A stretch of DNA of 64,000 bases from Lingula anatina (Eukaryota > Animalia > Brachiopoda): the NCBI GenBank assembly GCA_051362555.1, contig CM120644.1:13290567-13354566 (forward strand), given 5' to 3'. Positions within the stretch are counted from its first letter, which is position 1; every line of letters starts with the position of its first letter. Shown here piece by piece: positions 7,593 through 63,560 of the stretch. A program made the position numbers and the translations under genes. A model generated the notes under the pieces. The model worked only from the letters and a program-made list of their open reading frames with translations, did not search any database and had not been told where the DNA came from.

Positions 7593-16241
<8,649 letters not shown>

Positions 16242-16455
16242 GATGCTGCTGCTACCGGACTGCAACTGACACCGCTGTCCTTCAGTCCTCGACTCGTCTG
16301 CCTTTTTGTTCTTCAAAAATGAGAAACATTTAAACATCTTGTCTAGCTCTCCAGAGGATATTGTTTCTAAAGAGAATATGTTGTCCTCATATAAATTGTA
16401 TAATTATCAGTTATGGTATTGTTACAACCCTTTAAGCCAATGATGAATTTCTTAC

Positions 16456-26900: not shown

Positions 26901-27458
26901 CTTCTTGTGTTATATGTTTTAATTATTAGAATTAAATAAGTGATAACAATTCTTGGTGGTTCAGTTGGTTTCTCTCCTTATTTAATAAATGATTGTGAAA
27001 TAAATAATCTTTATCAAGGCAGGCTTTTATCTTGGTGTAATATGGATAAACACCATTGCTTCCACTGTAGAAGATGATAATATATGATAGAATGACCCCC
27101 CCGCTTGTGTACTTTTAAACAGTAACAAGGTTTGACAACTAATTGGTTTCAGCCAATTTTCTTTCAGCCTATGATTGTGATCAGGCATGTGAATATTGTT
27201 GTTAAAGCATAGATATATTTCATGTTCTTTGAAATCTGATCAGGTTATATATAATGCTGCTGTTTATTTATTTATTCATTCATTCATTCATTCATTCACC
27301 AGCTATCACTGAGAATAACCTGGGTCATAATGCGGAGGTGTGTATATCACCCAGCAGTGGACACAAACTCCAGACCATGCCACTAATGACCATCAATAAG
27401 ACAGAGGGGAAAAGGTGAGTGACCACATTGACCCTCCTAAACCGGCCATCCATCCAGC

Positions 27459-27495
<37 letters not shown>

Positions 27496-33400: not shown

Positions 33401-34722
33401 GTACTAAACCTGTTAATATTACCTCCAGTCCAGGAAGAGCTCCACTCCCTCCCAGTCGTGTAGGTGGCAGCACATCCTCATCGCCCAGAGCATTCAAACC
33501 AAATTTTGGAACAAGTGGGGCACCTTATAGCACAAACAATGTAAATAGTTCTAAAAACAATGGAGATGAAATAAATAATAGGACAAGTATTGGGGCTAAA
33601 ACCAACCCTGTCTCAACTGGGGCAGCCACAAGATTAGACTTTACAAAGCCACCAGCAAGCCCACCTCCATCCGAAACTCTGACTCAAAAACCGCAAAAAG
33701 AAATTCCATTGAAAAGCATTAGTGAGAAAGACAGTGTGGAAAAGACTCATGTATCTGACTCTGCAGCTAAATCTCTCCAGTCCAAAAACGTGAATGGCTT
33801 GAATAACAATAATAATAATAATGGAAAAACTGGCAATGGTGCTTCCCTAAAGAGTGGAGTAGAAAAAAGGCGAGGTCTGTTTGATTCTATAGGATTCGAA
33901 CCCAAAACTGAATCTACAGATAAGGGAAAAGACTCGGAGAACAGGGTAAATTCAATAGGTGGGTTTACATCTGAAAAGCAAGATTCAAAACAGCAATCCA
34001 GCTATGATGGAATAAGTAACCAATTGACATCAAGTTTTGACATGACTTTGAACTCTCAAAAATTGGGGTCATCTCCAAGAGTCTCTTCTTCATCATCGTC
34101 ATCATCTTCTTCTTCATCACAAACAAGTAGTAGTAATCTTAGAAGCAATCATGTTGTTGGAAATGACAGCACAAATAGTCCCACTTCAACCAGTACTGTC
34201 AGGCCTCAACAAAGTGACAAAGACACTGATAACATTTTTAAAGCTCCGACTCCAAAACCTCCTGAGTCCCCAAGTCCTGCTGGCACAGTGTTAGAAAATA
34301 ATAAAAGAGACGATGGGTCACCTGCACCCAAACGCATAAGAATCGAGTCTCAAAAACCAGTCTTAAGCCCAAGAAGTGACGCTAGTAGTCCTGATAACCT
34401 GATTATCGACTATCCATCAACGCCAAAGTCTTCTCAGCAAACTGGCGCTGTCAGATCCCCTACAGCGAAACTCGGTAGTGAGTCCCCTGCTATTGGGGCT
34501 ATCCCACAATCCCCTGCAGAGGAGGCAGCCATGCATTCTCCCGCTGCCGTAACCTTGAAATCACCAGCTCCAGCAATGCCCATCAAGTCTCCGTTGCCAC
34601 ATGCTCCTTCGCCTTCTCCATCAGCCAATAATAAATCGAGTTCTGCCAGTAGGGGAACGTCACCAGGCGATACAGCTTGTGATCTGGATGATGACTTGAT
34701 GGATGCAGCATTAATGAACTAA
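20915..34722 (+). CDS. MED1: Mediator of RNA polymerase II transcription subunit 1, 1912 aa
   Basis: Exons 20915-20972, 22169-22278, 23222-23300, 24325-24506, 24911-24939, 25186-25260, 25607-25681, 26002-26069, 26785-26871, 27303-27414, 27694-27818, 28092-28195, 28763-28949, 29550-29645, 30013-30118, 30477-34722; 5739 nt in one frame, all GT-AG. Matches recalled human MED1 segments (LLMERLR...WGETSKM; ETLQKALKV; SDLFKVEV; CKLY...CSDDYVCRVIQRCLSIPVTMRAI). LxxLL boxes NPMLASLL and SILSSLL; long S/T/P/K-rich disordered tail. Confidence 0.96.
29020..29372. repeat. Degenerate ~32-bp minisatellite in MED1 intron 13
   Basis: Repeated GGTAGGTTTGTCATGGGGAAAAGATGGAGAT-like units, about ten copies. Confidence 0.8.
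29381..29590 (+). repeat. 81-bp tandem triplication that includes the MED1 exon-14 splice acceptor and exon start
   Basis: TTCAG|GT(A/G)CAT(A/C)ACA..CACTG.TATTT.AA.TGA begins after an AG at 29388, 29469 and 29550. Confidence 0.85.
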
Positions 34723-43800: not shown

Positions 43801-46800
43801 TTCTTAATCAAAAGTAAACTATAGATTTTATCTGTATATATCCACCATGATGCTGTACATTCGTGGATAACGTCTGCAATAAAACCAATTCTTGTGATGA
43901 GCATTATGCCCGAACCTTGTGAAACCGTCTGAGAAGCGATTGGCATTTATTATGATTCGTTTAAGCACATGGAACTTTATTGGAATAAACGGGCGCAGTG
44001 GCGGATTTAAAGGGGAGGGGGGGAGGGGTCAGGGGGGTCCTTCGGTTTCTGAAAAATATATCACACCAATATTCCTCTCTTGAAATTAGAATTTTGGCTA
44101 GCTAAAATATAGTTATAAACCGCACAGAGGGAACCGTTTGCCCTCCAAAACACCAAAATATTTTCGGGGCCCTTGAGCAGACTCCGAACCCCACGCCAAG
44201 GGGGCGATGGTCGGCTTCGCATCCGAGGCCTGTCGTTGTGGACCCCCCTTCAAAAAATCCTGGACCCCCCTGGGGTGGGTGGGTGGATAGGTGGGTGGAA
44301 GGCTGAGTGCCATAGCATGGGTGGTGGGGTAAGGACGGAAGGGTTTTCTGCTATTCTAGTCTTGTACGAAGTTTAAAAATCCCCAGTATCATATAATACC
44401 ATATTCACTTAAAAGTTAAATATTTTGTGCTGTTGTTTCATCCCACAAAAGTCTAGGGGTCGCTGGGGTTATTCCTTCAGTGGAGGTCCGCTTCGAATTT
44501 ACGAGTACGTTTCTGTTCGTGTGCGACGTGTGATGAAATAGTCTATCTTTCAGAACCCCCCCCCCCCCCTTCTAAATTCCAGTTATCGTCTCACAGTTCA
44601 ATGTGCTATGACGCATTAACTATACAGAATTACGCTGATACTGGCTCATTCAGACTGAGTTTATCGCTTCTCGACCTGTCTGTATTTGATAAACAGCAAT
44701 CTTCAAATCAGTTTTGAATTATTGTCTTGGTATGTGCTGAATATGACCCGATATAAAAACGATTTCTAAGTGATTGGCCGTCAAATGACCTTGTCCAGTG
44801 TGTGTCGATTATAACTGTTCTGAGATTAGACTAAATATCCCATTAGGAGTTAAATAATATTGAACATAAAATTGCCGTTTTTTATTACTTGATATTGGAT
44901 TATTATTATTATTATTATCATATTTGTTAAGTTTGGTGGTCTGCTTGGTAAAATTATCTAACTCAGAGGAGTGACTCTTCAGAATTTTCTCTCACGGATG
45001 TTAAAAACATCATACGAACTGTTTATTATTTCACAAAAAAAAAGACAGAAAGAAATAGAGAGTGAGAAAAAAATTGATAAATCCTCCTCATGTTTATTCT
45101 GCTTTCTTAAGTGGATTGTTCGTCAAATTGCAGACTTATTAAAAAGGGAATTAAGTAAAAAAAATAATAAAACCTCAGACAATTAATTGCATTGCATCCT
45201 CACTACACGTCCTTTCTTACTGTTTTGTGTTTGTATAACCGTCAATTAATACCCGTAGCCTTCTCATACTTCGCTGATTTTAATCAACTCCTCGAATCTT
45301 GGCTGCGGATTTACGAGGTATTAAAATCAGGGCGCAATGTTTGTTGTAGGATTTCAATTAAGTCCCCAGACGTACTCAGTTGCCTTCTCCGTAGCAATGA
45401 ACCTGAAGCTTCTCAACGTGTAACGGAAAAACGGGTAAGGCGAAAGGAAACGGGAGGACTGGGATGATATTTTAGCCTTGTTATCATTGTATTTTTTATA
45501 TTATTTCTTTTTTTTTCTTTAATGTGTGTGCATTGCTAGGTGCTGGAGAAACAAGCCTACGTTGTAAGATCTGTAGATGGCTTCCATATTACCACACATT
45601 CTGTTCCCTCAAAAGATCTCCCCTCATGCACCAAAATTTAAAGATTTAGTGCCACTGTCAATAGTCTAATACCATAACTTTCATCTATGTAAAAACTAAC
45701 CATGTTCTGATGATTATATAGCATAATTTACATATACACAAAATATTCAGCTATATCATTATACACGCTACTTATGTACTTGTTTGGTCATAACTTTTGT
45801 AAAAAATATGCTAGAACTAATTAAAATTATTATTATCATTCCTGCCCATCTTGCGCGAGATTTACTGTTAGATCATCGCAACAGTGACTTTATGGTGTAA
45901 TTAAACAAACAGTTGCAATTAAACAAACAGATTCGCCTGTGAGAGAACTGTGAAACTAAGCACGCCTACGCCGCCCAGATTTCTTCATCATTAAATTGCC
46001 CTCAAACATGTAATATTAAAAGAGACATTCTAAACCATCAGCACACCTAACCCCGGCAACCTATGCCCATTAGGTAGGAAGTAAGCATCGGACTCCGCAG
46101 TGATTTTTCACCCACGTCTATTGAACCGTCAAAGCCCCAGGTTGACATTGCAAACAATCGTGAGTGGCCTTATGAGAAAATCATGGCCTGTGTTTTAATC
46201 TATAAATGTATGTAGGTGGCGATAACGAGCTTTATTATCAGTCTTTTAAACAGTATTATTATATCCAGGGGTGTTGGCACCTTTAAGCCATTTCGCACTT
46301 TTGTATGACATGAAAAAGTTATAAAGTATTTTAACTGTGTATTTCATTGAATAACTATAATAAAATATACAAGGAATTATTACAATGAATGTTTCCTTTA
46401 AGTATTTTTTTTTTATCTTTTTCGTCATTACGTTTTTGTTTTTATGCTTTCCTATTCCCTCTTAATTCATCATCTTATCATCCATATAGATTTATGCATA
46501 TTTACTAATGAAATTGTTTTTTTCTTCGTTTGAATGAAAATTCGTTCTTTTCATTTTAATCACTCCATAATGGTACTGTTTCATTTATTTATTTATTTAT
46601 TTATTTATTTATTTTCACAGGTATGGGACAACGACCTGGCCCTGATAGCCAAACGCTGGGCAAACAAATGCGAATGGCGACACGGGAATATAAAACAGGG
46701 GACGCCATACGCCAACGACTACCTCGGCCAAAACCTTTACTCCTCCACCCACCCGCCTTCGACAACCGTGGAGCCCATGAACTCTTGGTTTGCAGAGAAG

Positions 46801-48364
46801 AAGGACTATTCCTATGCCAGAGACACGTGCAAGCCCGGTGAAATATGCGGGCACTATACTCAGGTATGTGCAATCATATGGGAGATTTAATTGTAACTGT
46901 TGTACCGAAAATGCCTATTTTTATTTGCTATATTGTAGGCCTATACGGTCTGTAATTAGGGAGGTCCAAAAAGTCTGTGTAATATTTTGTGAAAGAACGC
47001 AAAAGCCTTTGTCCATGTTTTTTTAGTCATTATTTATTCCCACGCTCTATCTTTCCACGTGGACGTTCATTTTGATCCGAGATGTGATTTCCGTTGTCTG
47101 TTTCTCTGGGATATCTTCACAGTCATCCTTGGAAAGCCTAGCCAACAGCTTATGATTATAACTAGTTGAATATGAAACCGCATTCATGGTATTTGTCATT
47201 GCCATATCTGGCGTAGGCCTAATAGAAAAATCAGTGAAAAGGTAGGCCTACATCTAACTGAAAAGTTGATGGTTGGGTCTATTGTAGACTTTGTTCAAAT
47301 GCCTCTTTACCAATTGAATAGGTTGCAGTGCGTTTTGTTCATTTGCGACAGTTTCGTTTCTGTTTTTGTCAGAGAACTGTTCTAGCTTTTCCTATGAGAA
47401 ATCCAAAATGAATATTACACTCAAAACAGTTTCCTCACTCTATCTGCTAAATGTCATAAGTGTCATATATATTGGAATGTTTTCACCCAACCAAAGCGTT
47501 CCCCGACCACGAGATGCCCATAATTGTCAATGGCAACGGCTCTCGGATAACGTATCCCATCATCCCTCTGAACCACCATGCACTTGAAATGTCCATCCGC
47601 CGTGACGACTTGCACTCTCTGATTTGTGTACTCCGCGATGAAAATGAGACCGAATTTGTCGGTGCAAACGCCAAAGGGACTGTAGAGAACATGCTGTTTC
47701 CGCGGAGCGAATGATTTCACCGGTTGTGCCTGGTTCACCTCGCTTCCGTTCACTTTAGGCGCCTCCTCTTTGACAACATTTTTTTGGTCACGTGATTTAC
47801 CGTTTTGGTGATGCTTCTCGTCGGAATGGGAGTCTTTTCTTTTCTTCCTCCCGAAAAGTCGCTCGCGTAGACTGCTTTGTCTTCTTATATGTTTGGTTTC
47901 AACTTTTTCAACGTGTTCAGTTGCCGGGTCTGCCTTCATGTGGACCTTGTCTATGACGTGAGCATTTGACGTCGTATCTTTATGCATCGAAGCCTCTTTT
48001 TCGTCCCCGTCGTGATGTGACGTCATCAGCGTTGCTATGTCAACGCCGTAATTATAAAGGAAGTTGCCCTCGGAGTCGAATACGGTAAGGCAGTCTTTGC
48101 CGTAATCAGAGACGATAATGCTGTCAGTGAGGCGATTCACCGTGACGTGGAACGGTTGGACGAATAGTGGCCCCTCGTCTTTGGCACCTGAAACAGATCA
48201 TAAAGACAATATATTGTCACCCTCCTGTTATCTATATAGGCTTACCTCCCTGGCCTAACTGAAGGTATTTCTGATGTTTAATGGTCACTTAACCCCCCCC
48301 CCCCCCACACACACACACACACCACCACCACCACCACCACCACCACCGCCACAAGCACCACCAC

Positions 48365-48400
<36 letters not shown>

Positions 48401-49954
48401 TCTCTTTCTCTGGCCAAAATTCGTTTCGAAGCTAGATGTATGCATCAGTTCACCTTTAATGACATGCTCCAGCTTGCTCCCATCTGCTGAATACACGTAC
48501 ACACACTTCACCTGGGAGTCCGTCACTATAATGTTCCCTGGAAAATAAAATACCGAAAATGAGTCACCACGTTGTGATAGGTGAGGACACGTAGTGATGA
48601 TCCAGAAATGACCGAGTTGGATTGCTACCATTGTGTTGGTTGAGAACTTAAGACCATACTATTTAAGACCTTGTCGTCTGTTTTGTGATTAACTTTGTTG
48701 TTAATAAAACTGGAACAAAAAAGACGTGAGAATATTGACAATTAGGCTATTCAATAAGTTGAGTGTGTATGTGTGTGTGTGCGCGTCAACTGTACACTTT
48801 CAGGTTTACAAATAAAGCAGCGCTTAGAAAGCAACTTAAACTTTAAACACTGACTCACTGCCGCAAAAAAAAAAAAAAAAATGTATAAATGCTCCACCCA
48901 GTAAATCCTCTAAAAGCTTGGCTCCCAAGATATGTAAAGTGCAAATATACACAACTTTTAAAAGCTGTGGTTTATTTACAGTACTTATTACAATTTAAAT
49001 CATAGCAAAAAAAAAATTCTTCATTATGCCAACTTAATATTAATAATATTTCTGACAGCTTTATCTGATAAGTTTTATACGGAGATATCAGAAAGGATTC
49101 GATATTGGACAATCATCATTTCCTTAAAAAGACCGAAAGGAAAAATGAACAGGTATAGGTTCGCAGTACCTTGACTGTTGACCGCTATTCCTCTTGGGCA
49201 TTTCAACTCTTGACCATGTATCGTGCTGACCACTTTGCCGTCTGCAGAAAATATTTTCACGCATGCATCGTGGGGCTCCGTGACGGCAAAATTTCCACAA
49301 GGCAGGGCCGCCACGTCCCAGGGGGTGAAGAGCTCGTCTGAACAAAGCCCCGGGGTCCGTGAGGCTGGAGAGGTCCCAACTGTCCCCGGCTTGTAAACCT
49401 CTATGCAGGGATAAGACTTGTTGACGAGGAGGACGTCATTTTGTGACGTCACACTCATGCCGGTCATCATATCTGACCGGAGGCAATATTCGGACAGCAG
49501 GATGCCCCTCATTTTCTTCCTTTTTCAAATTTGGCGATGTGCGTTCACTTCCTTCATTTAGTTGTTCAAGTGACCAGTAAAAGTACAGCTCGCAACTTAT
49601 TTGAGAGTCAGTCGATTTTGTGCTTCCTGGAAAAATAACAGAATAACTAAAAATTGTGATACACCGTATATGTAAATGTTGCTGGAGTTAACATAGAGAT
49701 TGTGATGTAAGAAGTCTACTCACAGCACTGACAAGAGACTCATAACGACAGGCTCGTAGCAAGGGTGGTTTGAGGGGGGAGGGGGTAAAACGAACCACCC
49801 TTTTGTTAGCAAAGGTCTTCTCTGGGTATAAATTGATCTAGCTATACCAAGGCTTCCATGTAAAAGGTACTCTTTTTCAGAAAACGCCCCCCTCCCTTTG
49901 TAATTGTTTTGAAATTGCTGGGTACGGGCCTGTAACGATGATCATCGAATATGC

Positions 49955-49995
<41 letters not shown>

Positions 49996-52900
49996 GCACA
50001 TATACACAAGTACACCCACATCCTAAGTAAGGCATACACTCACCTTGTTTTCATGCGCGCTAGGCCTATATTCAAAAGCTTTACCTGTATATCCAACCCA
50101 AACCAGCTGTTGCACACTACAGCGCGCTGATAACGTCCCGTTTATGCAGGCACGCCCCCGTATCAGACAGGTTAACAAGCGTTCACGTGCACGTTTTAAC
50201 AGTCAGAGCTAAATGTCTCTGCTATCCTTGACGCGGTGAGAAAAGATGCTGAGAAATGCCATTACTTCCTGGATCAAAATATTGACAGTGTCGTGACTGT
50301 GACTGAACCCAGGTGTGTGTAGTTGGATACAGAGTCCTTCAGTTAGGGTTAATAAGTGATTTAGAGACTAGTCGCTTAAATGGTGACACGTTATCAGTTG
50401 GCTTGTTATCTGTCATCTGAACAGCGGTGAACTAGTAACACTTATACCGCTATACCTGAACAGTGAGGCATCTGATCAACTGCCTGATACCATTCATCGT
50501 CACGTGTCTTTGATCCAAGTCCAAAAGTCAAAACCCTTCAATAGGTAGACAGGAGGCCAACGGGGCCTTCATGCATACGCACCATTGTGGACAATTCCGC
50601 TCGACTCCACAGAGCCAGATGTATTTTTCAGTCTGGATTAGGTGAAACTCCTAGAAAAGTTCCACGATTTCCGTTACTTCCACCCTCATGTACCCGGAAT
50701 CCCAGAGATTACTGGAAATCAGTTTCTGCACATGTTCCCAGCGTGTAAATGGTGGATGTTATTTCCCATGTAACTCCCATGCACATATATACCACTTCCT
50801 ACTATAATTCGTAGAATTGAAATATCTTAACCCAGTTAAGCCAGGTACCTTACAGATAAACACTGACTCTAACTTAGGCTAGATTTGTACTATATACCCT
50901 TAATATAATGAATCACCTTTCGTCCCACAGTCGACTAAAATGGCCGTTCACATTCATGTGCCTCTATGTGTTTGCCCCTGTATAGATTGAACCATAGTAC
51001 TACTTTGTAACGCCCAATATACCCCGCCAGTCAAAAAATAATCGATGCCAATATTTGATGTGTCTTTTAAGTGCCTTTCATAGTTAAAGAACTGTGGTCT
51101 TTATTCTGTACGTTTGCGGGTCTATGGCATTATGTCATAGTTTGTCTCTTAACCAAGTATTCAATTTTGCTGTCATTCTAGTAAGGCCCTTTTATTAGTA
51201 TGATAATCAATTATAAATACTACGTGCCTGCGCATTTTGTTACAATAGGATTTGACCTAATTGTGAGTGACAAAGGTGCGTATACAAAATGTAGGGCGAT
51301 TGGGTCGATGTTTCTTTATCTGAAAAGGAATGGGGAAGTTGGGAGAGACATAAAAGGATAATTTTGACTAGGGTTCTACCAAGGAGTTATAACTGTTATA
51401 ACTCCTTGGTTCTACGCACTACCGTTGTCACACATTGAATTTTGTTCCTCGCTTACACACTTTCAAAGTACCGTCTAATTAAATGAAGTATTTTTTAAAG
51501 ATTAGGTATCATTAGAAATAAGTTATATGTAGAGAAAGAAGACACTTGCACACATTTTCCAGTTTAAATCTTTCCTCTGAAGGAAAACACGAATAAATTT
51601 TCAAATAGCTGCCCCTTCGACCCCTCACTTAAAAAAATTAAGACAAAAAAAAAAAAAAAGAAAGAAAGAAAGAAAAGAAAAGAAAACTTGCAAAATGTTA
51701 TTGAACACAATAAGACTAACTTGTATTGATTATACTTTATGGCCACTGTCCACTCTAGTAACGCTTTATGAGGCGAACAGATTGTTGCACATCAAAAATG
51801 ATTGATTTAACCTTTAGGTCTTGGTCGTTAAATACGACAATAATTTGGATTAATTGGATTATTAAACCGCACAAAGCAAGCTCAGTTGAAGTACTTAACT
51901 GTTGCTGGGCGTCGTTGCTCAAAGCGCAAATACTCCGTGGAAATACCGATCTCAGTGTAAGAACACTGGGATTTCTATCCTTTAAAGTAGATACTATGAG
52001 AAAATGTGATAGTCAACGCATGAAATTCATACATTAATGTTAATGAACTTTAAATATTACATCTTAAGGGTGTATTCAGAACAAGATGGTCCGCGTACTA
52101 ACAGATCCGCGGATCAAATGTGGCCGATCCACTTTAAAGCTTGACGCATAACCCCCAAAAGACACTTAATAGATTCCCCGCTATAACTCCGCGGTAAGCT
52201 TTCAAGTGAGTGGGCTTGATTTGTGAATGTGGCCTTATTTTTTGTTATTTATTTATGACAGTGTGTCAAAATCTCAGACAAGCGATCTCAGGTAACAGTG
52301 ATCGGCAGGGCGATGACGCAGTTGCTGTGCAAAATTCCTCTCCGGACAGAAATGTGCCCAGTTAGTGAATAACTAGACAAATATCCGTGAATATCTAGTG
52401 AAAAAAGATTTACTCTGTGACCCTGGTAGAGTGTGCATGGTCACTAACTTGAAAGTAATAGGGATACATTGTTATTGCAAAAATCTAAATGGATCAGATT
52501 GTGAATCGGTCTTTCGACATTATTTCCCCACTGTCCAATGTCAATTACATGTCTATTTCATTTATCCATTCAAAGTAAATCATTGCACGGAACAGATAAA
52601 ATAGAATTAAGACCCTTTCAATTAAAATGTTTTCTTGAGATAAATTATGTACTCGTCAACACTTAATTCTTTTACATTACACTTATTTTGTTTCAGCTTG
52701 TATGGGCCAACTCGTACCGCTTAGGCTGCGCTTTCAAGGAATGTCGACGAAATTCTCCGTTTGGAACCTCGAAGTGGTACTACTCGGTGTGCAACTATTA
52801 TCCTGGGTGAGAGGCTCATTGACAATGGAAGCGACATCCTTTGTGTTTTTTGCTTTTTAAATAGATGTCCCAACGGAAGAGGTCCTGTTTCCATCAGCTT

Positions 52901-55900
52901 TGGTCTGTCTGTTTGTTCATCTGTCTTAGAATGGATAAGTAACCCCAAAAATTTTTTGAGAATTCTTGAAGAAAAGTTTTCACAACAGACATTCATTTAA
53001 GAGATGACAATTTTAATTTAGTTGCCTTTTTATTTTTTGAAGATTTTATTGCTCTTTTCTAAGAGGGAGGCCTGTGCCTTTGGAGTGCTGTTTAGTTTTA
53101 TTTATTCATTTTAATTTATTGATTAGATACGTATCTTTATTAAGATAATAAAATAATTCAAACCCTACCTTGATGGAACAGGCTGTGAAAGCACAGTTGG
53201 CCTGACAGCAGTCTCAGAGCTTCATATCAAAACTTTTCGTGATACGAAATCTGAGATAATAAAACAGCCTCCTAACGTAAAAAATTGTGCAAGAGTACAT
53301 TTTTATCTATTATTTCAGTGGAAACATCATAGGAAGAAAGCCCTACAAGACTGGAAGACCATGCAGTAAATGCGCAGCACAGGGAAACACGGGAGATTGT
53401 GTGCAGGGATTGTGTGGTACTGAGAAGTCATTTTAATATTCTGGATATTCAATGACGGCTCCACGAGTTTGCCATAAGAATTTGGGCAGGGAAGGGGGAA
53501 AAGTGGGCGTACATAAATAATAAGCAATTTTGCCCCGATTCATTCCGAAAAGTTTTACCCCTCTAATATATAGGGCACAGGGGTGGAAATAGATACGTGT
53601 AGGACTGTGTAGTTTCGTTTTGATCCTTACTTTTTTTTTTTTTTTTTTTTTGGGGGGGGGGGGGGGAGTGGGGCTGGGGGAGGTGGCAAGCGGTGCCTCA
53701 AAAGCTAAGGGAACGGAACATGACATATGTGCCCCTCTCCTTATTTCTTATATAGGATATTTGATCTAAATTTCTATTTGATTAAACCACTATTTAAACT
53801 GGTGCAATATCAATCAATGCCATGGGGTAAATTAAGGAATCGTTTTATAAAAACACTACCGAGTGACGCTTGGTGGTCTTTATACATGGCAGTTATTGGT
53901 AGTTTGTCTCTACTAACGCAATGACCGTGTCTAATATGCTTGTTCTTGGTCTTGCTAAACCAATTATATATCAAATAGTTCCTGTTATTTTGCAGATTGT
54001 TTTATTAAATTTATCATTTATTAATTTTTTCTTGAATAGACATTGTTTACACTACTTTACAAGTAATTCATTTTTCAATTCTCTCTCAGCCACTACCTAC
54101 CAGTGTGATCGTGAACCAGAAAGCTGTGGTATGTTATTTATTTATTTATTTATTGCTACTTTTGAGTTTCTCGGAATGTGTTATATAAATGCGGTTCAGT
54201 ATTTAAAACTACTTTCATTACTGTGCGAAAACAACTTAGCATAAATTGTCCAGAATAGACACACACACACACACACACGCAGTCATTTTTCGTACCCTGG
54301 ATTTATCCGTGTACATGTCAAACCATCATTTATAACCTCCTTTCTAGGTCTTGAAAACACCTGCGGCCGTGTCATCGAGTGTGACAACGGCGGAACCCCT
54401 GACTACGACACCTGCGGCTGTCGCTGTCCCCCAGCCTTCGGCGGAAGAACGTGCAGAGCAGGTATGATGCGCAATTACCCATTACGAAAAATATCAAATT
54501 TGATATTTATGCATCGGATATTGAACGATGGGCCTTTGCTTGTTTTTCGCCATTTAACAAGCCACGACTCAATGCAATTATCCTAGAGTTTGAATTATTC
54601 ACCTTTCTCTCTTTTTTTTTTAAGTTGTATGCCTTATTTCAAACAATGTGAAGGTTTTAAGTCATTGGTTGTCACTTCGGGAAAGTTCTTTCTTATATCT
54701 TTCTTGATTATAAAGTATTTGATTTACATATGAGCTTCCTATATGTTTTCATTTACAGCGAAGTGTTCTGCGGTCTATAAGTGTCAAAATGGCGGGAAGT
54801 TTGATTACGATTCCTGCACGTGTCAGTGCACAGAGTTTTTTGCAGGAAGGACGTGCGAGCGAGGTATGAGTTTACACTGATTCATTTTATTACTTTGCTC
54901 AAATGAGTTATAAAGACTTGGCTTTAAGACAAACATGAATATCTTAACCGTATTTTGTACTTTGTCATATTGCGCCACATATAAAATTGAACTTGCCGTG
55001 TGTGTGTGTGTGTGCGTGTGTGTGTGTGTGTACAAATATACATAGGTATCTTTATTGCAGACGAGATCAATATTACTTTTTTTTTTGGTTTGAACACATT
55101 TAGACACATGTACATGTATTCAAAAGCAACCACGCGACCTCAGGTGGGATATACATTTCAGCAACATTCAAATTGATTTTGATAAACGATGTTTAATTAC
55201 ATACTGAGTGCCAACCAATTGCTTCCAGCCGAAAAAGAAAAAAGCGAAGACGACCAAAAACGTGTGTCCTAATATTTTTCTTGTTTCTTTTCTCTGCCCT
55301 CCACTCTTTTTCATTTCATTTTCTCTTCACTTAATTCATCTAGTTCCATGGACACAGCGAAATTCTCTCTCGTGACTTGCATGTCGGATTCCACCAATCG
55401 CTTTTTTGGAATAAAATCGGCCTATCCATTTTTTCATGTTATCAGTGCTTTACATTTATATGGAAGATAAGTTTTTGCACGATTTTTGCTTTTAGAAGAG
55501 AGCGTTGATGACAATGACATTTTATCCTCTAAAATCAGCCCATTTCTTTAAATGGTTGCATTTATTTTTCCTGTCACATCAACAAAACGTATTTTCCCTG
55601 TGAAGTGGAAAAGGGGGAAATGCAAGTATCCTTTCGCTTGATTTTAGTTGAAAACGGGAATTCTAAAAACGTATATTATTTATAGGATGCTTTAATTTTT
55701 ATCTCATTATTGAGGTAAAAGTTAGGATCGAAAAATCTACCAGTTAGGCTGGAAAAATTCTTTTCGTGTTAAAATCTTTTCGACGGACCATCTGCATATG
55801 GAAAAAAAGATACTTTGATATGCATGGATAAATCATATGTTTATATGATGTTCTTTATGTATCTTCTAATACCAGGTGCATGTTTTATTATATTTAGACT

Positions 55901-56404
55901 GTGACATGCATGTTTTTACATATTTTACCCGTTATATCTCTTTTTGGTTGTATAACTTCATACGGCCCTATATTGAATGCTCTTTTTTTAAGAAACGAAA
56001 CCTGATGCGTTATCATTTATATAAGGGAAAATGGATTTAAGTTTATATAATCATCTCTGTATTTTTAAGTTAATCTAAATTCAGGGGGTTGAAAAATGAT
56101 GTGCGGATTTTAAAGTGATCGAAATTGACACTAGTAAGTGACTGAAGCTTAGACACTATCAATGGAAATATTTTTAATGCAATTTGATGAATAGTTCTCA
56201 CGCAGTTTGAATTACATTACCAGTACAGTGAATAACAATCGACTTTCAGCCAAATGCAGCGAACTGGGTCAATCCGGAAAGGACGTGTATTGGTGCTCCA
56301 CGGTCGGTCCGGAATGGTGCCAGCCAGGATTCCATCTTGTAGGAGAACCCGAAGACCAAGAGATTCGGTATAAGTACTGCCCCAGGAAATGCGGGATATG
56401 TTAA
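40868..56404 (+). CDS. Secreted CAP/SCP (CRISP/venom-allergen-like) protein with hinge, two EGF-like domains and a C-terminal ShKT-like domain, 354 aa
   Basis: Exons 40868-40955, 42282-42394, 46621-46863, 52697-52806, 53319-53416, 54090-54128, 54348-54461, 54759-54863, 56250-56404; 1065 nt in frame. Signal peptide MQKKVAGVLFVMAAFGVLKLDA. CAP motifs HNEMRR-V-P-ASNM, WDNDLA, GQNL, CGHYTQLVWA, LGCA, VCNYYPGGN, PYKTGRPCSKC. EGFs CDNGG..CGCRCPPAFGGRTC and CQNGG..CTCQCTEFFAGRTC. Ends CPRKCGIC*. Confidence 0.93.
43996..44272. mobile_element. G/C-run-rich MITE with CAG...CTG ends (hAT-like); a related fragment lies at about 2575-2717
   Basis: Starts CAGTGGCGGATTTA, ends TCCTGGACCCCCCTG; imperfect TIR, no clear TSD. 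Confidence 0.45.
47463..49512 (-). CDS. Stand-alone NHL-repeat beta-propeller protein (TRIM2/3/71-type NHL repeats, no RING/B-box seen), 383 aa, nested antisense in CAP gene intron 3
   Basis: Coding exons 49512-49170, 48537-48454, 48187-47463; 1152 nt in frame. NHL motifs LFTPWDVA, LKCPRGIAVNSQGNIIVTD, FVQPFHVTV, LYSPFGVCTDKFGLIFIAE, IRYPRAVAIDNYGHLVVGE. 5' UTR acceptor at 49626 and upstream donor AAG|GTGAGT at 50044. Confidence 0.9.
49749..49932. mobile_element. 184-bp MITE with CAGG...CCTG ends and a 6-bp TSD (hAT-like)
   Basis: CAGGCTCGTA/TACGGGCCTG imperfect TIR; TAACGA directly repeated at 49743-49748 and 49933-49938. Confidence 0.7.
51380..51408. mobile_element. 29-bp perfect palindrome with a 7-bp TSD (minimal TIR-TIR relic, P-element-like termini)
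   Basis: GTTCTAC|CAAGGAGTTATAAC-T-GTTATAACTCCTTG|GTTCTAC. Confidence 0.7.
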
Positions 56405-58301
56405 AGTATTTGGGGCGTGGTCGAAGCAAGGATCACGATCTGTGAATTATATCAACGTGTGATTATTGTGAAGTTGTTGTGCTAATCTCCAGCTGCAGCG
56501 AATCGTAATTACGCTGTATACAATATCCCTGGAAGAACAGTTTCTCTAGACAGTGTCTGGTTATTTCATTTTTATACAATGCTGTTTTGACTGTCGTTGT
56601 GAACACATCCTTGTAGCTATAGCGTGATATCAAAATGACAGCTAAATGAACTACTTTTGCCACCACGAATTTTCTGGGATAAGCTAAGGCGTATAAGTAA
56701 CGCAATATTTGCGCGAGTGTAAAAATATCGACACATAAACTGCCGACATGTGATGCTGTATATCTATGATTCTACCGGTATAATTATAGTTTTGACGTAT
56801 ATATTCATGTGATATTTTATATTGTGTTAATTTTCATTGCTGTTTTGATTAAAATGTGTATTTATTTCTTTGAAAACGTTTCTGTGTCATTTCAAAATAC
56901 ATGTTCTTGACAGACATCGAAATATTGGAGGTAAACAATTTCGTTTATCAACTTGAAGAAAAAAATATTACTTCATATTCATAACATGACACAGCTGATG
57001 AAATTCTCTTCTCACATGCTTCTACCATTTTTATATAATCTAGTGCTTGTGAAACGTGCTGAAATTGTGAAATTGAAATTGTGAATTTGATTGATATAGA
57101 CTGAACTGTAGAATCCTACTATAGGACTATGCATGTATTATCAAGGAAAATATGGATTGACTTTCCCCTTGGCCGAGAACATACCCACATGATACTCGGG
57201 TGTTCGGAAAAACAACAAGATATTCATGAAATCACAAAAATAAATAGAGAAAATTTTCTGAATCAACAGCGGAATACTTAGTGTGCCTTTAGCAATATGC
57301 AAACTATCCGGGTTACCGCTATACGCAGGCATCTTTTTAAACCACCGACCGCAAAACAGGTAAAATCACAGATTGTGTCTGGCTTATTAGTAAGTATATT
57401 GAAATTTAAACCGTGTAATCTCCTAATGACGGGTTTCGTTTACCAAGGCTCACGGAGAGAAAAATGAGAAGACAACGTGCTTTGGTCTATGTCGTCGGGC
57501 GTGATCAGTTTGATGATGTATTCACGCTCTTCTATCATATTTTGCTGAAGAGGTGTTTTTCGTTATCATATTTGTCATTTTTTCATCGTCGATAAGGTGA
57601 AAAATTGAAGAGATCGTGAACAAGTATACACATTGCATTTTGTGCATAGCATGAAGATTTTAAACTGCTCCAATTGTTTTCAAAACATATTGGTAAATTA
57701 GAAGGCAAAGTTTGTCTGAATAATACCAAAACCAGCTTTATTCCCTTATCAGGCATATTTTGAGAGTCAGCTCCGTTCTCTATATGTTATTCAATTGTCC
57801 TGTGACGATTTACACATTATTGGTTATAGATCTGATAGTTTTACAACTACATCATACGAATTATCAAACTTTTAAAACTCACAATGTTCGTGAAACTTCT
57901 GCATAGTAAGCAGTTATTTTTCTTTGAAATCTCAACTCTTTCCCCTAATGAAATGGACCTTTTTATCTTTTTTCGTAATCACTTTTTTGTTAAAGCCCTC
58001 ATTAAACTTTGATGTCTGACGCAAATGGGCTTTAATATTTCAAAGCATTATTCCTTTTGTTCTTTTCCACTAATGCAAACAATAAATTTACCTCTGAAAA
58101 TTAAGCTACGTTTTGTTCAAATCTTTGAAAATCTGAGACGGTAATAGCTTAACAAACTTTGGGTGGATGGGTGGATTTTGAGTCTTTAAAAGCGGCTGTT
58201 TAACAGGGTTATACAAATAGCGCATTTTGCACAGCAAAGAGCTTTGTGGTGAAACAGTGCAGACAGAGATCTTGACCGGTGCTTGCCCAAGAGTTGTCAC
58301 T

Positions 58302-59010
58302 ATGAAGATTGTCTTCCTACACATTGTAGTAACGTTACTGTTTGTTGGCCTTGAAAAAGGTAAGATCCCTTGATTTATGGTTATCAGATTTATTGGTTGA
58401 TTGGTGATTCATTGATATGTTTATTCATTTTTACTCAGTTATTTGTTCATCCATTTCTTCATTTATTTACTTTTTAAGTCATACTAGCTTGTAAATCTGC
58501 TTTTATAGCTTTGTCTAAATCAATTAATACCGATGATGGAGAATTTCCATTTCAATGGAACATTCATACTTCTATTTTTCATTGCTTTTTCCCAACATCT
58601 TTTTTCCCCAAAATAGTCTTTAAAAATGATTTATTTTGTGTGCAGGCACATGGCAAGTATATTCGAACCCAATACCGGGCGAGCGGTTCTCTCCCGAGGG
58701 TGGTAGATTTCCAGACAGCGGGGATCTCACGGAGAGAGACCCTGGTTACGTTAACGTCGAAAGGCTACTCAGTCGAATTGAGAAGCCCTCTAAGCCAGGT
58801 GATGAAGGGAGGGGGATCATACAGGGTGGAGGAGTACCGGCCAAGGGGCTGAACCGGATCCTACTCGATCGACGTGATGGTGGGGTGCTTGATGAGGAAA
58901 CTCTAAAGAAAAAGCAACTGAATGAAGGCACTCGTGACAATGTCGACTTCAAGAGACTGTGTACGGCTTACGAGAGCGTGATTTGTGCTTTGAGGTACCT
59001 TAGCCGCTGA
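58302..59010 (+). CDS. Putative prepropeptide A, 140 aa; predicted C-terminal peptide LCTAYESVICALRYLS(R)
   Basis: Exon 58302-58359 (MKIVFLHIVVTLLFVGLEK, donor G|GTAAGA), phase-1 intron, exon 58646-59010. Hydrophilic pro-region with an RR site, then KR and a two-Cys peptide at the extreme C-terminus. TATA-like sequence near 58210; AATAAA at 59304-59309. Confidence 0.8.
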
Positions 59011-61213
59011 GAAGAAGAATCTTACCGTGATGACAGTAGATATATTTGAATGACATTTTCAATCTCGGTTTCTACATCCGCGTTGGACATTAACTAGTTG
59101 GAGACATTGTTTAATACCCAATGCTTAATTAACATAATTCTATATTCATTGCAACTTATGCACCGGTATGCACTGGCAAATATGTACAGTATGACAACAG
59201 AATAAGACTAAACTACAAAACAAAGACACCAGGCTATCATAATAATCTCTTTAAAGAAAAGTTTCAGCACTGTTCTATTGAGCTGTCTCTCTTTGACTTC
59301 CAAAATAAACGTGGTCATCGCAACGAAAGTGCGCTTTTTTGCACGTCTTACAAATTTGACAAATTTCTTTGTAACTGTCGATATTAAAAAGTGAGTCTTG
59401 TTACTTTACCATTGGCACAAATAATTTTCATAATGTAAGCACATTGTGGGGAAGTGACGCATATCAAATTGGCATAATTTGACACTTCCAAAACTAAAAT
59501 TAAGCTAAGGGTAGCCGAAATAATGGACAAGGAAAAAAAAGACAGATGTAGGTTTATGTATTTTCACCAAATGTAATTAAATGAAAATAAAAAAATGTTC
59601 ACTGCAAACCAGATGAATCATTAGGTCGGTATGGGATTAAGAAGATAGTTAAGGGATCTAATTGTTATGAGATGCTATGAAAACTAAGTCATTGAAAATG
59701 ATAAAGCAAGAATGGTAAAGCATCATTGCAATAAAAGGCAAATACATCACTAACAAAAGTACAAATTCATCTACTGTACTTTCTATTTTTTGTTATTTTA
59801 GACACAAAAGGCAGTTCATCATTCATAAACGCGTGGCCTAAAAAGCCAATCTATTTCACGCAATCAACAGATGCGTCACTGCACGCTTCGCCATCTTTCG
59901 CGTTAGATTATAAGGGTGTGTTCCCGTTGAAACTATCGTACTAGGTAGATCACGAAGATTGTCGCTGAATGCAATCAGATTGACTATATGACGCCTCCTG
60001 GAACCGCTAGGGGTAATTAACTTCCGTGCGCGTTCGGTCGCACTCTAAACGAAATGAAAATGCTTCCAAAGGCCAAGAGCTCAAGATAAGGCTAACACTT
60101 CTAAAGTCCCCAGAAAATTTATTTCTCAAAAATATCTCGATCAATAGAAATGGCGTCACCGATGTGTGGCGACCCCCATTTCGTGCTTGTGAAACAACAC
60201 ACATCCACAAAACTGAATATATACGATGCTGTGTGAGGTCAACATCAACCCAAGGAAAGTTGAGCAAGAGTTTTAGGTATGTGGGTCCTTCACGCTGATT
60301 TGTATCGTACTAATCAATTTATATCGAAAAACATTGCCAATATGATACACCCTTTTACAGACCGGTGTGAAAGGAACTGCAGTCCGCTAGGAACCGTCGT
60401 CAAATTCCCAATGCTTCGTACTAGTACCTTTTATAGCTGATATTTGTCCCATATACTGCCCTTAATACTTCCAGTGAAACGTGACACAGAGTCCCCCATT
60501 ATAGAGAGTCCGCTTCTCATTCATTTGTACAGGTAAGTGTTTGACCCACGTAGGTCAAGCTAACCCTAACCATTACAACTAAATTGAGAGCAGACATCTT
60601 GTTTCACGGACCTTTAGTTTCATTACACCGGCTAGCCTTTACCTGTGCTAATCATATTGGAACCAGAAATTCCTAACCAAGGAATACCATTCTTTTCACA
60701 CTTGTCCGTTTCTAAATTTCTTTAGGTAAAGATCACCGAGAAGTCTGCATTTCTGACTTACATATATATCTGTTGAAACTTCGTCTTATAATCACTAATT
60801 TTATATGACTAATATAAAATACAACGAGATACCACACGCACTGAAGATGGAAGGCCTACAGAGACAAGTTTCAAATTCTTGAAAACAGTTTTGCATTTCT
60901 TCTCTCGGAGAAATGGTACATTTTACATTCTTTACTCCTTCCCTGCAAATGAAAGTTGTGGCATTTGTTCCACGGCATTATAATAAAGGATTTAATGGAT
61001 TTAACCAGCAATGCATCTTGATTTGTCAAGTTCAAGTTACGTGAAAGAATCAAAGTCGTCTGGATAAGATTTAGGTATATGTCATGGTATTGGCTCTGCA
61101 ATCTGATTAAAGTACCACAAACTCAGAAACCAGGGCCTCCTAAAACTGTGAAAATCCATAACCGAAACCGAAACAAATAAAACGATCAAGTGCAATGTCC
61201 TGCAGACGACGAG

Positions 61214-62182
61214 CTATTTCCCTCTTAAATGCTCTAAGCGACAGAATACATTTTCAAAAGCGGTGCAATATGGTTTGTTTGTCTTTTGGCGCTTGTGAAA
61301 CTCCGAAAGTACATCAATGTCAAGGATGAAGTGGTCACTGCGCTTGCGCCGTGAAGACTTCTGCGTAGGATCGTGGTTATCACGTGCTGTTGTTCCTCGA
61401 AAAAATTCGGTGGTAATTTGAGGTGGTTTCTTGCTCACGGTCCATTTCCAAACCGCTCTGTCAATTTTGTGCTTCGATAGGATTTTCGGCATGAGGGTAT
61501 TTTTAAGCGGTAGTGCTGCAGTCGGCAAAAGTGCTAAGAATTGCCAAAAAAGTACATTATTATTATAAAACATTCATTTCTTCCAAGGGAACATAAACTA
61601 TCGAAAAAAATACAAAAATATTTGTAGTCAGTGAATTTTGCCAATTATTTTTTTATTAGTTATGCTTTTAATACAACTTTTATAATTGTTCCAAGCCTTA
61701 TACTTTTTAAACGTGTTATTGAAAACATCAAATAACTGTATAAAGAGCTTCCGGGAGCGCATCCATTCGGCGAAAATTACCTTTTGATACAAAGTTAGTG
61801 TATCAAACAATCTTCTGTTAATTTTAAAAGGGTGTGCGATATTCTCTTGATCCGTTAAAAATTTGTCACTGTGAATTTGCTTTCAAGAAATTACTTCTGA
61901 ACCTAACCATGAAAATTATCATCCAAGCATTTACGTAAAAAGCAAACGCAAGATATTTGTATTGGGTTTCGTTGTCTACTGTCAGTTTTTCTTTACTTTA
62001 TTTTTTACGTTTCCTGTCGTGTTAAATGTAATATTTTGGGGTTTATATCGTCACGGGACGAAGAGCATTGAATGAATGAATTACAAAACACATCTATTAA
62101 CCTTCATGTACGTTTACTTACCGCTAAAGTAAATCACGAAGACAAACGCTATTGCAAAACCTGGCAGGACACGCGCTGGCAT
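61214..62182 (-). CDS. Putative prepropeptide B, 126 aa; predicted C-terminal peptide QKTNKPYCTAFENVFCRLEHLR-amide
   Basis: Exon 62182-62122 (MPARVLPGFAIAFVFVIYFS, donor G|GTAAGT), phase-1 intron, exon 61533-61214 (acceptor TTCTTAG). Contains RRKR and KR sites and a terminal GK amidation signal. ATTAAA on the minus strand at 60996-60991. Confidence 0.8.
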
Positions 62183-62510
62183 TCTGACGCGGAATTTCCT
62201 TCTTCCTGAGCGGCAAGACAATCACTGTACCTACTTTTTAGTGAACGTGGAATATGGCATCGAAATAAATCATCACTTATATTTGTTATGATATTTCCGG
62301 TCTTAATATGATTACGATAGCACGTGAGGTTGGTTTTCTATTACCTTTCTAAAGATTCGTCTCAGTGACGCCAATAGGTATCATGTAAGGTGTATTGTCA
62401 CATATTGTATTGCTATCACAAGAACTTCACTTACATTGATTAAAATCGCAGCCAAGACACGATTCGACCATAATTCCAGGAGGTTTACTCCCAGTCGTTA
62501 TCAGGGACAA

Positions 62511-62572
<62 letters not shown>

Positions 62573-63279
62573 AGACATACTGATGTCATCTTATGTAAGG
62601 CGCACTGAGAGTGTAGTGCGTTTACAAGAACAAAACTCAAGTTTTGTTTCTTTTTTCTTTCTTTCTTTCTTTCTTTAATCGTAGTCACGAAAGTACAGTT
62701 AAGAGGGCTTTTTTCGTTTAAATTCATAATAACCTGATAGTCACCACCTCAGTGGGAGTCCACCTCGGCACAGCTTCGACTCAGTCGATGAAATGACATC
62801 AAACAGAATGGTTTATAAGCCGGGAAGGCAGGCAGGCGTTCCTTGGACGGAATGTCATGTAGGTTTAAATCCAAAATATCAATGGTTAAGGCAAGGGTTT
62901 TGATACGGAGGTGAAGCAATGCACATGTAAAACAGTAGGCCTACATGACTTTTTATATAATACATGTACACTGTATGTAGGTCACAGTAAAGGAAATTGC
63001 TTGATTTTGTCTCCTTTCCCCTGATCATATACTGTTTTTGACTTTTATTCACGTTGATTTTATTATATTTTACTTTTCTTTTAATTCATATATCTTAAGT
63101 TCAATTGATTGATAGAATCGGAGGAGAGAACAGGAAGATCCTTCGTAGCAGATGGAGAAAACTGTCAGGTGTGCCCACGTTAGAATTTTCCATTGATTCA
63201 CCCACAGAAAGTAGCCCAAAGTATGACTCACGGGAAAACATTGTTTGAAACGCTTGCATTTGTAGCCATAACACATGAA

Positions 63280-63560
63280 GTCATGAATGTAAAATTAATA
63301 TATAGGAATAAATTAACTAACGTTGTTAAAACTGCAAGCAAGATTATCGGACAGGATCTCCCCAAGCTGTATGATATTTTTAAAAACAGAATGGAGAAAA
63401 GAACTGGATACACGATGAAAGATTATTCTCACCCAACATCATCACTTTTTACGTATTTACCAAGCAATAGTAGACTGTTAACTTTTAAAGGCAGTAAACG
63501 CTTGAAAAAAAAAAACAGATTTTAACCAAGTGCAGTAATTTGATCTCAAAACCAAATTCC
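63280..63560 (+). mobile_element. 5'-truncated LINE remnant (C-terminus of a Rex1/Babar-type ORF2)
   Basis: RNKLTNVVKTASKIIGQDLPKLYDIFKNR...KDYSHPTSSLFTYLPSNSRL resembles, from recall rather than a search, the RxxLQRVVxxAxxIIG..LP.L.DI...DxxHP...LF.LLPSGRR tail of Rex1/Babar elements. It decays into stops near 63525. Confidence 0.7.

Follow-up and report, generated by a model that had tools for sequence, protein, structure and literature searches.

Two convergent genes of Lingula anatina are predicted to encode related two-cysteine peptides, probably for signalling

RESULTS AND DISCUSSION

In a window of 64,000 nucleotides of Lingula anatina DNA (the whole stretch that was analyzed), we found two genes, A and B, that lie tail to tail and share a conserved terminal peptide with two Cys. 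On balance, we think that they are old duplicates, whose precursors would be secreted and cut to give related peptides for signalling, in a family that matches none described. The genes are of a well-known type, and the family is likely a signalling-peptide family that has yet to be assigned.

Anatomy of the two genes

A sequence-only reading of this DNA had proposed two tail-to-tail genes with phase-1 introns, and we confirmed its coordinates, strands, and introns, which have canonical GT..AG boundaries in both genes (Table 1). Gene A lies on the plus strand (58302 to 59010) and has a predicted precursor of 140 aa; gene B lies on the minus strand (62182 to 61214) and has a predicted precursor of 126 aa. 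Both begin with a hydrophobic leader, the top 11-residue hydropathy being 2.9 in A and 2.8 in B, in each case inside the first 20 residues. The basic pairs of A are at precursor positions 95, 107, and 122. The pro-region of B is strongly basic (net +11), in contrast to the acidic spacers reported for starfish precursors, which speaks against the signalling-peptide reading.

KR followed by a two-Cys peptide had been claimed for both genes. This arrangement is present in both, but its spacing differs: KR lies one residue ahead of the first Cys in A, whereas seven residues separate them in B. The predicted form of peptide A is a free acid once the last Arg is removed, and it has no amidation signal. 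Peptide B carries an N-terminal Gln after KR (a pyroglutamate signal) and an Arg-Gly-Lys-stop end (an Arg-amide signal), and these predicted modifications are detail beyond the earlier reading. Each gene has one further in-frame acceptor close by, at 58658 in A and 61515 in B. The dispersed-repeat fragment listed in Table 1 has one copy within the 64-kb window. Neighbouring genes include MED1-like, Ral-like, and CAP/NHL ones.

Table 1. Coordinates of features of genes A and B
Feature	Coordinates	Strand	Description
Gene A exon 1	58302..58359	+	ATG 58302, GT donor 58360; hydrophobic core of predicted signal peptide
Gene A intron	58360..58645	+	Predicted, 286 nt, GT..AG, phase 1; splice sites restore one open frame
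Gene A exon 2	58646..59010	+	120-codon open frame with pro-region, RR and KR, terminal peptide, and stop
Predicted mature peptide A	58957..59004	+	16 aa, C-x7-C; after KR, before Arg-stop; putative processing
Candidate polyadenylation signal of A	59304..59309	+	AATAAA, motif scan
Dispersed-repeat fragment	60370..60590		Between both 3' ends, outside either gene; many reads fit in part, with loose ends at either side
Candidate polyadenylation signal of B	60991..60996	-	ATTAAA, motif scan
Gene B exon 2	61214..61533	-	Open frame: signal peptide end, basic pro-region, RRKR and KR, terminal peptide, Gly-Lys-stop
Predicted mature peptide B	61223..61288	-	22 aa, C-x7-C; between KR and Gly-Lys-stop; putative processing
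Gene B intron	61534..62121	-	Predicted, 588 nt, GT..AG, phase 1
Gene B exon 1	62122..62182	-	ATG 62182, donor GTAAGT; hydrophobic core of predicted signal peptide

Conservation is confined to the terminal peptide

The proposed core, CTA[YF]E[SN]V[IF]CxLxxL, was confirmed in both genes as 14 codons at 58960-59001 (+) in A and 61267-61226 (-) in B, with 8 of 14 residues identical. Local alignment of the second exons gave a score of 58 that was reached by 0 of 20,000 shuffles, a figure that is flattering because the pair was picked after the fact. A less circular count comes from the open reading frames of the window (stop to stop, at least 70 aa), of which 2 of 160 have a dibasic site and two Cys at their end, and these are A and B only. 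A pattern scan of the window (2 matches; 0 in 100 shuffles) is circular, since the pattern was derived from both cores. The pro-regions had been said to lack obvious similarity, and their alignment is indeed at chance level (score 22, reached by 2,971 of 5,000 shuffles). Between the gene regions, blastn gave no match better than E 0.42.

Codons of the two cores agree at positions 1, 2, and 3 in 9, 10, and 3 of 14 cases, respectively, and 6 of the 8 identical residues are encoded by different synonymous codons. Because residues are kept with different codons while the pro-regions are at chance level, the pattern is that of presumptive old paralogues in which purifying selection acts on the terminal peptide. 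The phase-1 intron common to A and B adds little to the case for paralogy, since such introns are generic in secreted proteins (PMC13542836). The pair also has class features of neuropeptide and peptide-hormone prepropeptides: a hydrophobic N-terminal leader, a peptide flanked by convertase sites or stop, and a conserved peptide with a diverged signal region and spacers, the last as seen between these two paralogues only.

Gene B is transcribed at a low level

We read 6 to 30% of each of seven RNA runs, out of nine identified by species label; two of these, X1 and X4, had zero reads on the window and hence are no test. Gene B is transcribed at a low level, with coverage in 3 of the 7 runs (X7, X8, and X9; about 25 read-equivalents together) that includes slight depth in the bin of exon 1. 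The mostly-intron bin of B held 340, 280, and 247 bases in X7, X8, and X9, where 335, 271, and 156 are expected if the exon alone is covered and 1,136, 917, and 527 if the intron is covered as well. Thus, the bin depths fit exon-only coverage. The reads of B lie on both mate directions, so they do not fix the strand of its transcript, and the tissues of the runs are not given. A single difference is listed in the X7 reads over exon 2 of B, at position 61277, and it is synonymous. The sequence-only reading had called for an RNA check of the junctions 58359/58646 and 62122/61533; no splice junction of A or B is listed in the seven runs. Gene A had no reads in any of the seven, among them the three in which B and splicing of a neighbour are seen.

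The silence of A in these runs and the lack of relatives in our searches would fit a non-functional state of one or both genes, with A a pseudogene or the match between A and B due to chance. We consider this highly improbable. The exon of A is intact and comes with canonical splice sites, a leader, and cleavage sites, residues of the core are kept despite saturated synonymous sites, and B is transcribed.

A and B could instead be secreted peptides that serve in defence, against microbes, or in venom, or one gene could have arisen by copying the other and be expressed in a gland as its mimic. A short amphipathic helix and the amide and pyroglutamate of B, all of them predicted, would suit such a role, and an LRR protein and a protein of CAP/ShK type are encoded nearby. 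However, the cores have a net charge of +1, which is low for a membrane-active peptide. Just two copies are present in the window, their third positions are saturated, and expression of B is weak in these samples. Excerpts of PMC10501145 report that cone-snail mimic toxins match the parent neuropeptide in the peptide region only. Nevertheless, conservation of the peptide together with divergence of signal and spacer is what is described for signalling peptides, and the reverse of what holds in conotoxin families (PMC10501145 and PMC9048919, in part). We regard a defence or venom function as quite unlikely and retain signalling peptides as the preferred explanation.

Searches for relatives

Database searches yielded no accepted relative of either gene. 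A word search with exon 2 of A gave 17 candidates, none at E<=10, and a search with the two-sequence alignment against proteins of 82 to 2,000 aa gave 35 candidates, again none. Nothing meaningful for A or B was found in Pfam, NCBIfam, PDB sequences, or Rfam. In the ESM Atlas, the best value for A was 0.83, to bacterial hypothetical proteins, and B was without a usable match; scans of metagenomes confirmed 0 of 334 stretches. Candidates were also set aside: the two matches at E<=0.001 in a HMMER search of 1.84 billion representatives were repeat proteins whose score was the sum over five stretches, and all five metagenome pattern matches were in short or unrelated frames and were judged to be chance.

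The sensitivity of these searches can be gauged from the pair itself. A and B have no 5-mer in common, and A scores B at just 9 to 13 bits, which corresponds to E values of 1e4 to 4e5 at database scale. These database searches would have missed a relative at the distance that separates A from B, so the novelty and range of the peptides are unproven. Accordingly, the claim of paralogous prepropeptide genes stands for selection on the peptide and transcription of B but not for a family that extends beyond two genes, for which these weak searches gave no orthologue. The core motif was not described in anything found by full-text searching of the literature, and the portions of the supplements of PMC8557429 and PMC6425005 that were searched held no match to it.

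Comparison with known peptide families

We also weighed whether A and B belong, after strong divergence, to a described family such as allatostatin-C, calcitonin, or elevenin, or to a lineage-specific peptide that is already listed. The insensitivity of our searches favours this possibility, as do several likenesses. The comparisons that follow draw on portions of the cited papers and supplements.

The precursors of allatostatin-C and echinoderm SS1 resemble A and B in having a single C-terminal two-Cys peptide with aliphatic and aromatic loop residues, and an Asn occurs in the loop of B (PMC9048919). However, the allatostatin-C loop has six residues in protostomes and ten in echinoderm SS1, against seven in A and B, and its phase-0 intron is in the pro-region, whereas the models of A and B have only the phase-1 intron in the signal region (PMC9048919). 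The protostome somatostatin/urotensin-II-like peptides (SSRP) likewise have one C-terminal copy, a disulfide loop, and a C-terminal extension, but they carry a WK motif in a 4-residue loop and have another intron pattern, and the loops of A and B are without Trp or Lys (PMC9048919).

Calcitonin-type peptides have a disulfide ring followed by a helix, and B shares an amidation signal with them (PMC6283891). They would be the best working model for the shape of A and B, taking the ring as putative and the helix as predicted. Nonetheless, calcitonins are about 30 residues long with a Pro-amide end, whereas A and B have 16 and 22 residues and no terminal Pro, and A is unamidated (PMC6283891; phoronid precursor in the PMC8557429 supplement). 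Six residues follow the ring in A and B, where calcitonins carry a long tail.

Elevenin/L11 likewise has a single two-Cys peptide and a short tail after it; one brachiopod elevenin has a C-T-x-F start, and C-R follows the loop as in B (PMC8557429 supplement). A loop of 8 and P-x-C-R-G, found in all of the sequences compared by eye (places 1 to 22 of 106), are absent from A and B (PMC8557429). In addition, elevenin is placed near the signal peptide with a long C-terminal pro-region after it, whereas the peptides of A and B are C-terminal (PMC8557429). Excitatory peptide and CCHamide share two Cys, a dibasic site, and an amide, but lophotrochozoan members have a loop of 8 and a GGN/GGH/GAH-amide end, and A and B have neither (PMC12969411). 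The DREP families are a finding of a similar kind, unassigned secreted Cys-peptide precursors of marine invertebrates in which conservation is confined to the peptide; compared by eye in Data Sheet 10, the families Triangle, CHH, Tail, Medial, and Hairpin had no C-x7-C core or residues of A and B (PMC10501145).

One unassigned peptide, starfish Arn24, is an amidated two-Cys peptide of 14 residues near the C terminus of an 83-aa precursor; this likeness, compared by description only, favours a listed peptide, but the lengths differ from those of A and B. MCH-type peptides, endothelin, CCAP, and oxytocin/vasopressin have their own loop sizes or motifs, with four Cys in endothelin and a neurophysin in vasopressin-type precursors. 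The precursors of A and B have two Cys each, no neurophysin domain, and no Pfam match. In their predicted form, A and B do not fit the two-Cys families checked. The mismatch to known families that had been asserted from the letters was upheld, in that allatostatin-C, SSRP, EP/CCHamide, elevenin, and calcitonin each fail a defining feature. Since the searched supplements also lack the core motif, we consider membership in a described family unlikely.

Ring, helix, or dimer

Single-sequence models of A and B, which are unreliable for short peptides, have a helix across the core. For A (mean pLDDT 77), the model has both Cys within one continuous helix; this fits an intramolecular bond poorly, because the two are eight residues apart there. 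For B, the model has the first Cys just ahead of the helix, which permits a ring. The claimed C-x7-C ring is thus borne out as a spacing in both genes but not as a ring in the model of A, and the disulfide ring in both peptides is putative. The helical hydrophobic moment is 0.49 in A and 0.50 in B, values reached by 335 and 918 of 10,000 shuffles, which makes B only weakly amphipathic by this measure. Fold searches with a 41-residue model of B gave no Foldseek match, and the top Z of 3.8 was to helix-turn-helix domains, which is uninformative.

The awkward spacing within one helix, as in the model of A, and the conserved hydrophobic residues on one face would suit disulfides that link separate chains, so that short helices pair as an A-B heterodimer or as homodimers. 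However, B has reads where A has none in X7, X8, and X9, albeit at low depth, and the model of B permits a ring. We consider such dimers very unlikely and continue with the ring as the preferred form.

Proposed maturation and significance

If A and B are signalling peptides with a ring, signal peptidase would take off the leader, and furin-type and PC1/2-type convertases would cleave at RRKR/RR and KR. A nine-residue ring, closed by the two Cys, would then cap a short amphipathic helix, and the conserved face (Y/F, V, I/F, L, L) may contact a receptor, for which a GPCR is the likeliest kind. It is possible, although we hold this only tentatively, that the pair represents an old, undescribed ring-plus-helix signalling family conserved across an animal group, with saturated synonymous sites, paralogues kept adjacent, and an orphan receptor, which annotation and neuropeptide surveys have missed. 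Many invertebrate peptide receptors lack a ligand and many peptides lack a receptor (PMC8557429, in part). Because two paralogues give the constrained motif directly, it is straightforward to search whole genomes for it and to screen receptors with the two short natural peptides. Widespread orthologues would mean one more signalling system among animals, and restriction to one lineage would make this one more lineage-specific precursor, of which surveys have found several.

The two products would differ in their ends. Gene A would yield a 16-residue free acid, with a calculated monoisotopic mass of 1801.87 (one disulfide assumed), and gene B a 22-residue peptide with both ends protected and a calculated monoisotopic mass of 2676.31 (disulfide, pyroglutamate, and amide assumed). 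Through this difference in end protection, the paralogues may differ in lifetime, tissue, or receptor preference.

Genes A and B encode paralogous prepropeptides

The window has the composition of animal genomic DNA (~37% GC, with spliceosomal introns). Reexamination of the sequence bore out the tail-to-tail pair that the sequence-only reading had described, including coordinates, strands, and the phase-1 intron of each predicted gene model. The two stop codons lie 2.2 kb apart. Because secreted proteins generally carry a phase-1 intron, according to the accessible part of PMC13542836, its presence in both genes is weak support for paralogy. A second in-frame acceptor lies near each intron (58658 in A and 61515 in B), and its use would merely trim the leader region.

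Basic sites are RR and KR in A and RRKR and KR in B. The claimed KR followed by a two-Cys peptide holds for the KR in both genes; the first Cys follows after 1 residue in A and 7 in B. The tail after the second Cys is six residues in both. Predicted peptide B begins with Gln and is followed directly by Gly-Lys-stop; by established processing rules, these are the usual signals for pyroglutamate and for amidation, respectively.

Coordinates of genes A and B, their predicted peptides, and other features of the window
Feature	Strand	Position	Details
Gene A	+	ATG 58302; GT donor 58360; AG acceptor just 5' of 58646; stop 59010	140 aa; one candidate polyadenylation signal
Gene B	-	ATG 62182; GTAAGT donor after 62122; acceptor before 61533; stop 61214	126 aa; one candidate polyadenylation signal
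Peptide A (predicted processing)	+	58957-59004	16 residues, from last KR, final Arg trimmed
Peptide B (predicted processing)	-	61288-61223	22 residues, from last KR
Leucine-rich-repeat gene	-	1-853	Has leader; extends past window edge
Local direct duplication		1985-2507	
Near-identical translations	both	9718-10109	
Ras-family gene (Pfam)	-	15386-16337	In-frame ATG 16337, 32 codons upstream of usual-looking start 16241
Multiexon gene	+	~22500-34722	Last exon ~1400 codons
CAP, EGF-like/ShK-like exons	+	46534-56404	
NHL-repeat gene	-	47466-49524	RNA-supported joints 48184/48451, 48536/49169
Dispersed-repeat pieces		52097-52135; 52373-52405; 56918-56988; 60370-60590	Many partly fitting RNA reads
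113-codon frame	+	63184-63522	Pfam match below threshold

Similarity between A and B is concentrated in the terminal peptide

We recovered the same identity in the 14-residue C-x7-C core as reported before, 8/14. Alignment of the second exons scored 58, which none of 20,000 shuffles reached. Without the terminal peptides the score was 22, equaled by 2,971 of 5,000 shuffles, in agreement with the claim of divergent pro-regions; the sequence separating the basic sites gave a faint, nonsignificant echo. The pair had been selected post hoc before the shuffle test, and a count of stop-to-stop frames was added as a second check: of 160 such frames of at least 70 aa in the window, two have at their ends both a dibasic site and a pair of Cys, and these are A and B.

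Core codons agree at 9/14 first, 10/14 second, and 3/14 third positions, different codons encode six of the eight identical residues, and blastn between the gene regions gave no match better than E 0.42. Together, these comparisons argue that the duplication is old and that the terminal peptide is kept by selection. That the genes are nonfunctional is hardly credible.

In signaling precursors the peptide is conserved while signal and spacer diverge, and conotoxin families do the reverse (PMC9048919 and PMC10501145, accessible parts). The A/B pattern is thus that of signaling peptides. A defense or venom peptide seems improbable, as does a mimic copied from a neighbor, although such a mimic would likewise match in the peptide alone. 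We lean toward secreted signaling peptides in which the ring would cap a short amphipathic helix and which would act on a receptor, probably a GPCR. Genes of this type are already well known. That the family is widely distributed and its receptor an orphan is conceivable, though we put it below even chances.

Single-sequence AlphaFold models place the core in a helix in both, at residues 27 to 40 of a B 41-mer (pLDDT 70) and 7 to 42 of an A 44-mer (pLDDT 77). In B, the first Cys immediately precedes the helix, which is compatible with a ring; in A, a single helix contains both Cys, which is not. Since one model allows the ring and the other does not, we infer a disulfide ring rather than read it from the models. 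A putative interchain dimer is very unlikely. Conserved hydrophobic residues make up a helical face (moments, 0.49 and 0.50; 335 and 918 of 10,000 shuffles were as high).

Searches for relatives of A and B

Word searches gave 17 and 35 candidates, none with an E of ≤10, and no relative of A or B appeared in the ESM Atlas, Pfam, NCBIfam, PDB, or two metagenome scans. A full HMMER search returned two matches, both spurious repeat proteins. As a sensitivity control, A detected B at just 9 to 13 bits, which at the size of the databases corresponds to E 1e4 to 4e5; the two have no 5-mer in common. Because A itself barely detects B, the blank searches exclude near-identical relatives only. The earlier interpretation is partly supported: the paralogous prepropeptide genes stand, and no relative beyond them was found at this low sensitivity.

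We then compared the pair with described peptides. Protostome AstC always has a six-residue Cys loop, SSRPs have a WK motif, and both have a phase-0 pro-region intron (PMC9048919, accessible text); A and B lack all three. They also have neither the loop of eight nor the GGN/GH-amide end given for EP/CCHamide in the open portion of PMC12969411. Elevenins differ in their loop of eight, P-x-C-R-G, and a peptide near the signal peptide (PMC8557429, in part). Calcitonins, which consist of a ring, a helix, and a Pro-amide over ~30 residues, resemble the predicted shape of A and B but differ in length and end (PMC6283891, in part). The mismatch claimed for these families thus held in these sources. 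The core was absent from ~1,300 precursors in the consulted PMC8557429 supplement by exact short-motif search, which diverged relatives escape, and from the searched part of the PMC6425005 supplements. Among the unassigned two-Cys peptides in the accessible parts of PMC4772807, PMC6586643, and PMC8398477, loops are of four residues or the spacing is not given; one of them, Arn24, was compared by its description. From the text and supplements consulted in the open literature, the pair appears to fit no described family, and a diverged member of one is unlikely. LxRx, pleurin, and CLCCY were considered and are unrelated (PMC8557429, in part), and the five DREP families of Cys-peptide precursors did not match in the available text and Data Sheet 10 of PMC10501145.

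Expression of gene B

Of nine RNA runs that carry the species label, seven were aligned to the sequence, with 6 to 30% of each run's reads. At 95% identity, five reads from run X7 fell on exon 2 of gene B, and their sole difference among those listed was synonymous. At 88% identity, X7, X8, and X9 covered all three bins of gene B (~25 read-equivalents in total), and X5 covered none. The bin that is 70% intron held 340, 280, and 247 bases, against 335, 271, and 156 expected from its exon part alone and 1136, 917, and 527 with the intron covered; this is about exon-only coverage. No A or B splice junction reached three reads in the seven runs, and the reads are unstranded evidence for B. Gene A had zero reads in all seven runs, of which X1 and X4 are uninformative on this point.

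The neighboring NHL gene has spliced joints in X7 to X9, and differences from the window are common to these runs; the joints show that the runs include reads from this animal or from one closely related to it. Across 46000-62450, sites differ in common among the differences listed, coding exons included, which suggests a diverged population or cryptic species under the same label.

Other features of the window

The NHL gene lies antisense between the CAP-domain exon and the EGF-like/ShK-like exons, apparently nested in an intron of a presumed single CAP-EGF-ShK gene. The leucine-rich-repeat gene, possibly Toll-like, changes frame at ~398-452; either a short intron or a frameshift could explain this. 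We take the Ras-family gene to be Ral-like and, by motifs, the multiexon gene to be MED1-like; Pfam gave no match on the last exon of the latter. CpG observed/expected is 0.42 to 0.45 in these two regions, 0.80 in gene A, and 1.27 in gene B, which would fit methylated housekeeping gene bodies versus unmethylated tissue-restricted genes. The frame at 63184 resembles the C terminus of ORFs in non-LTR retrotransposons, and the near-identical translations from both strands suggest a long, MITE-like inverted repeat.
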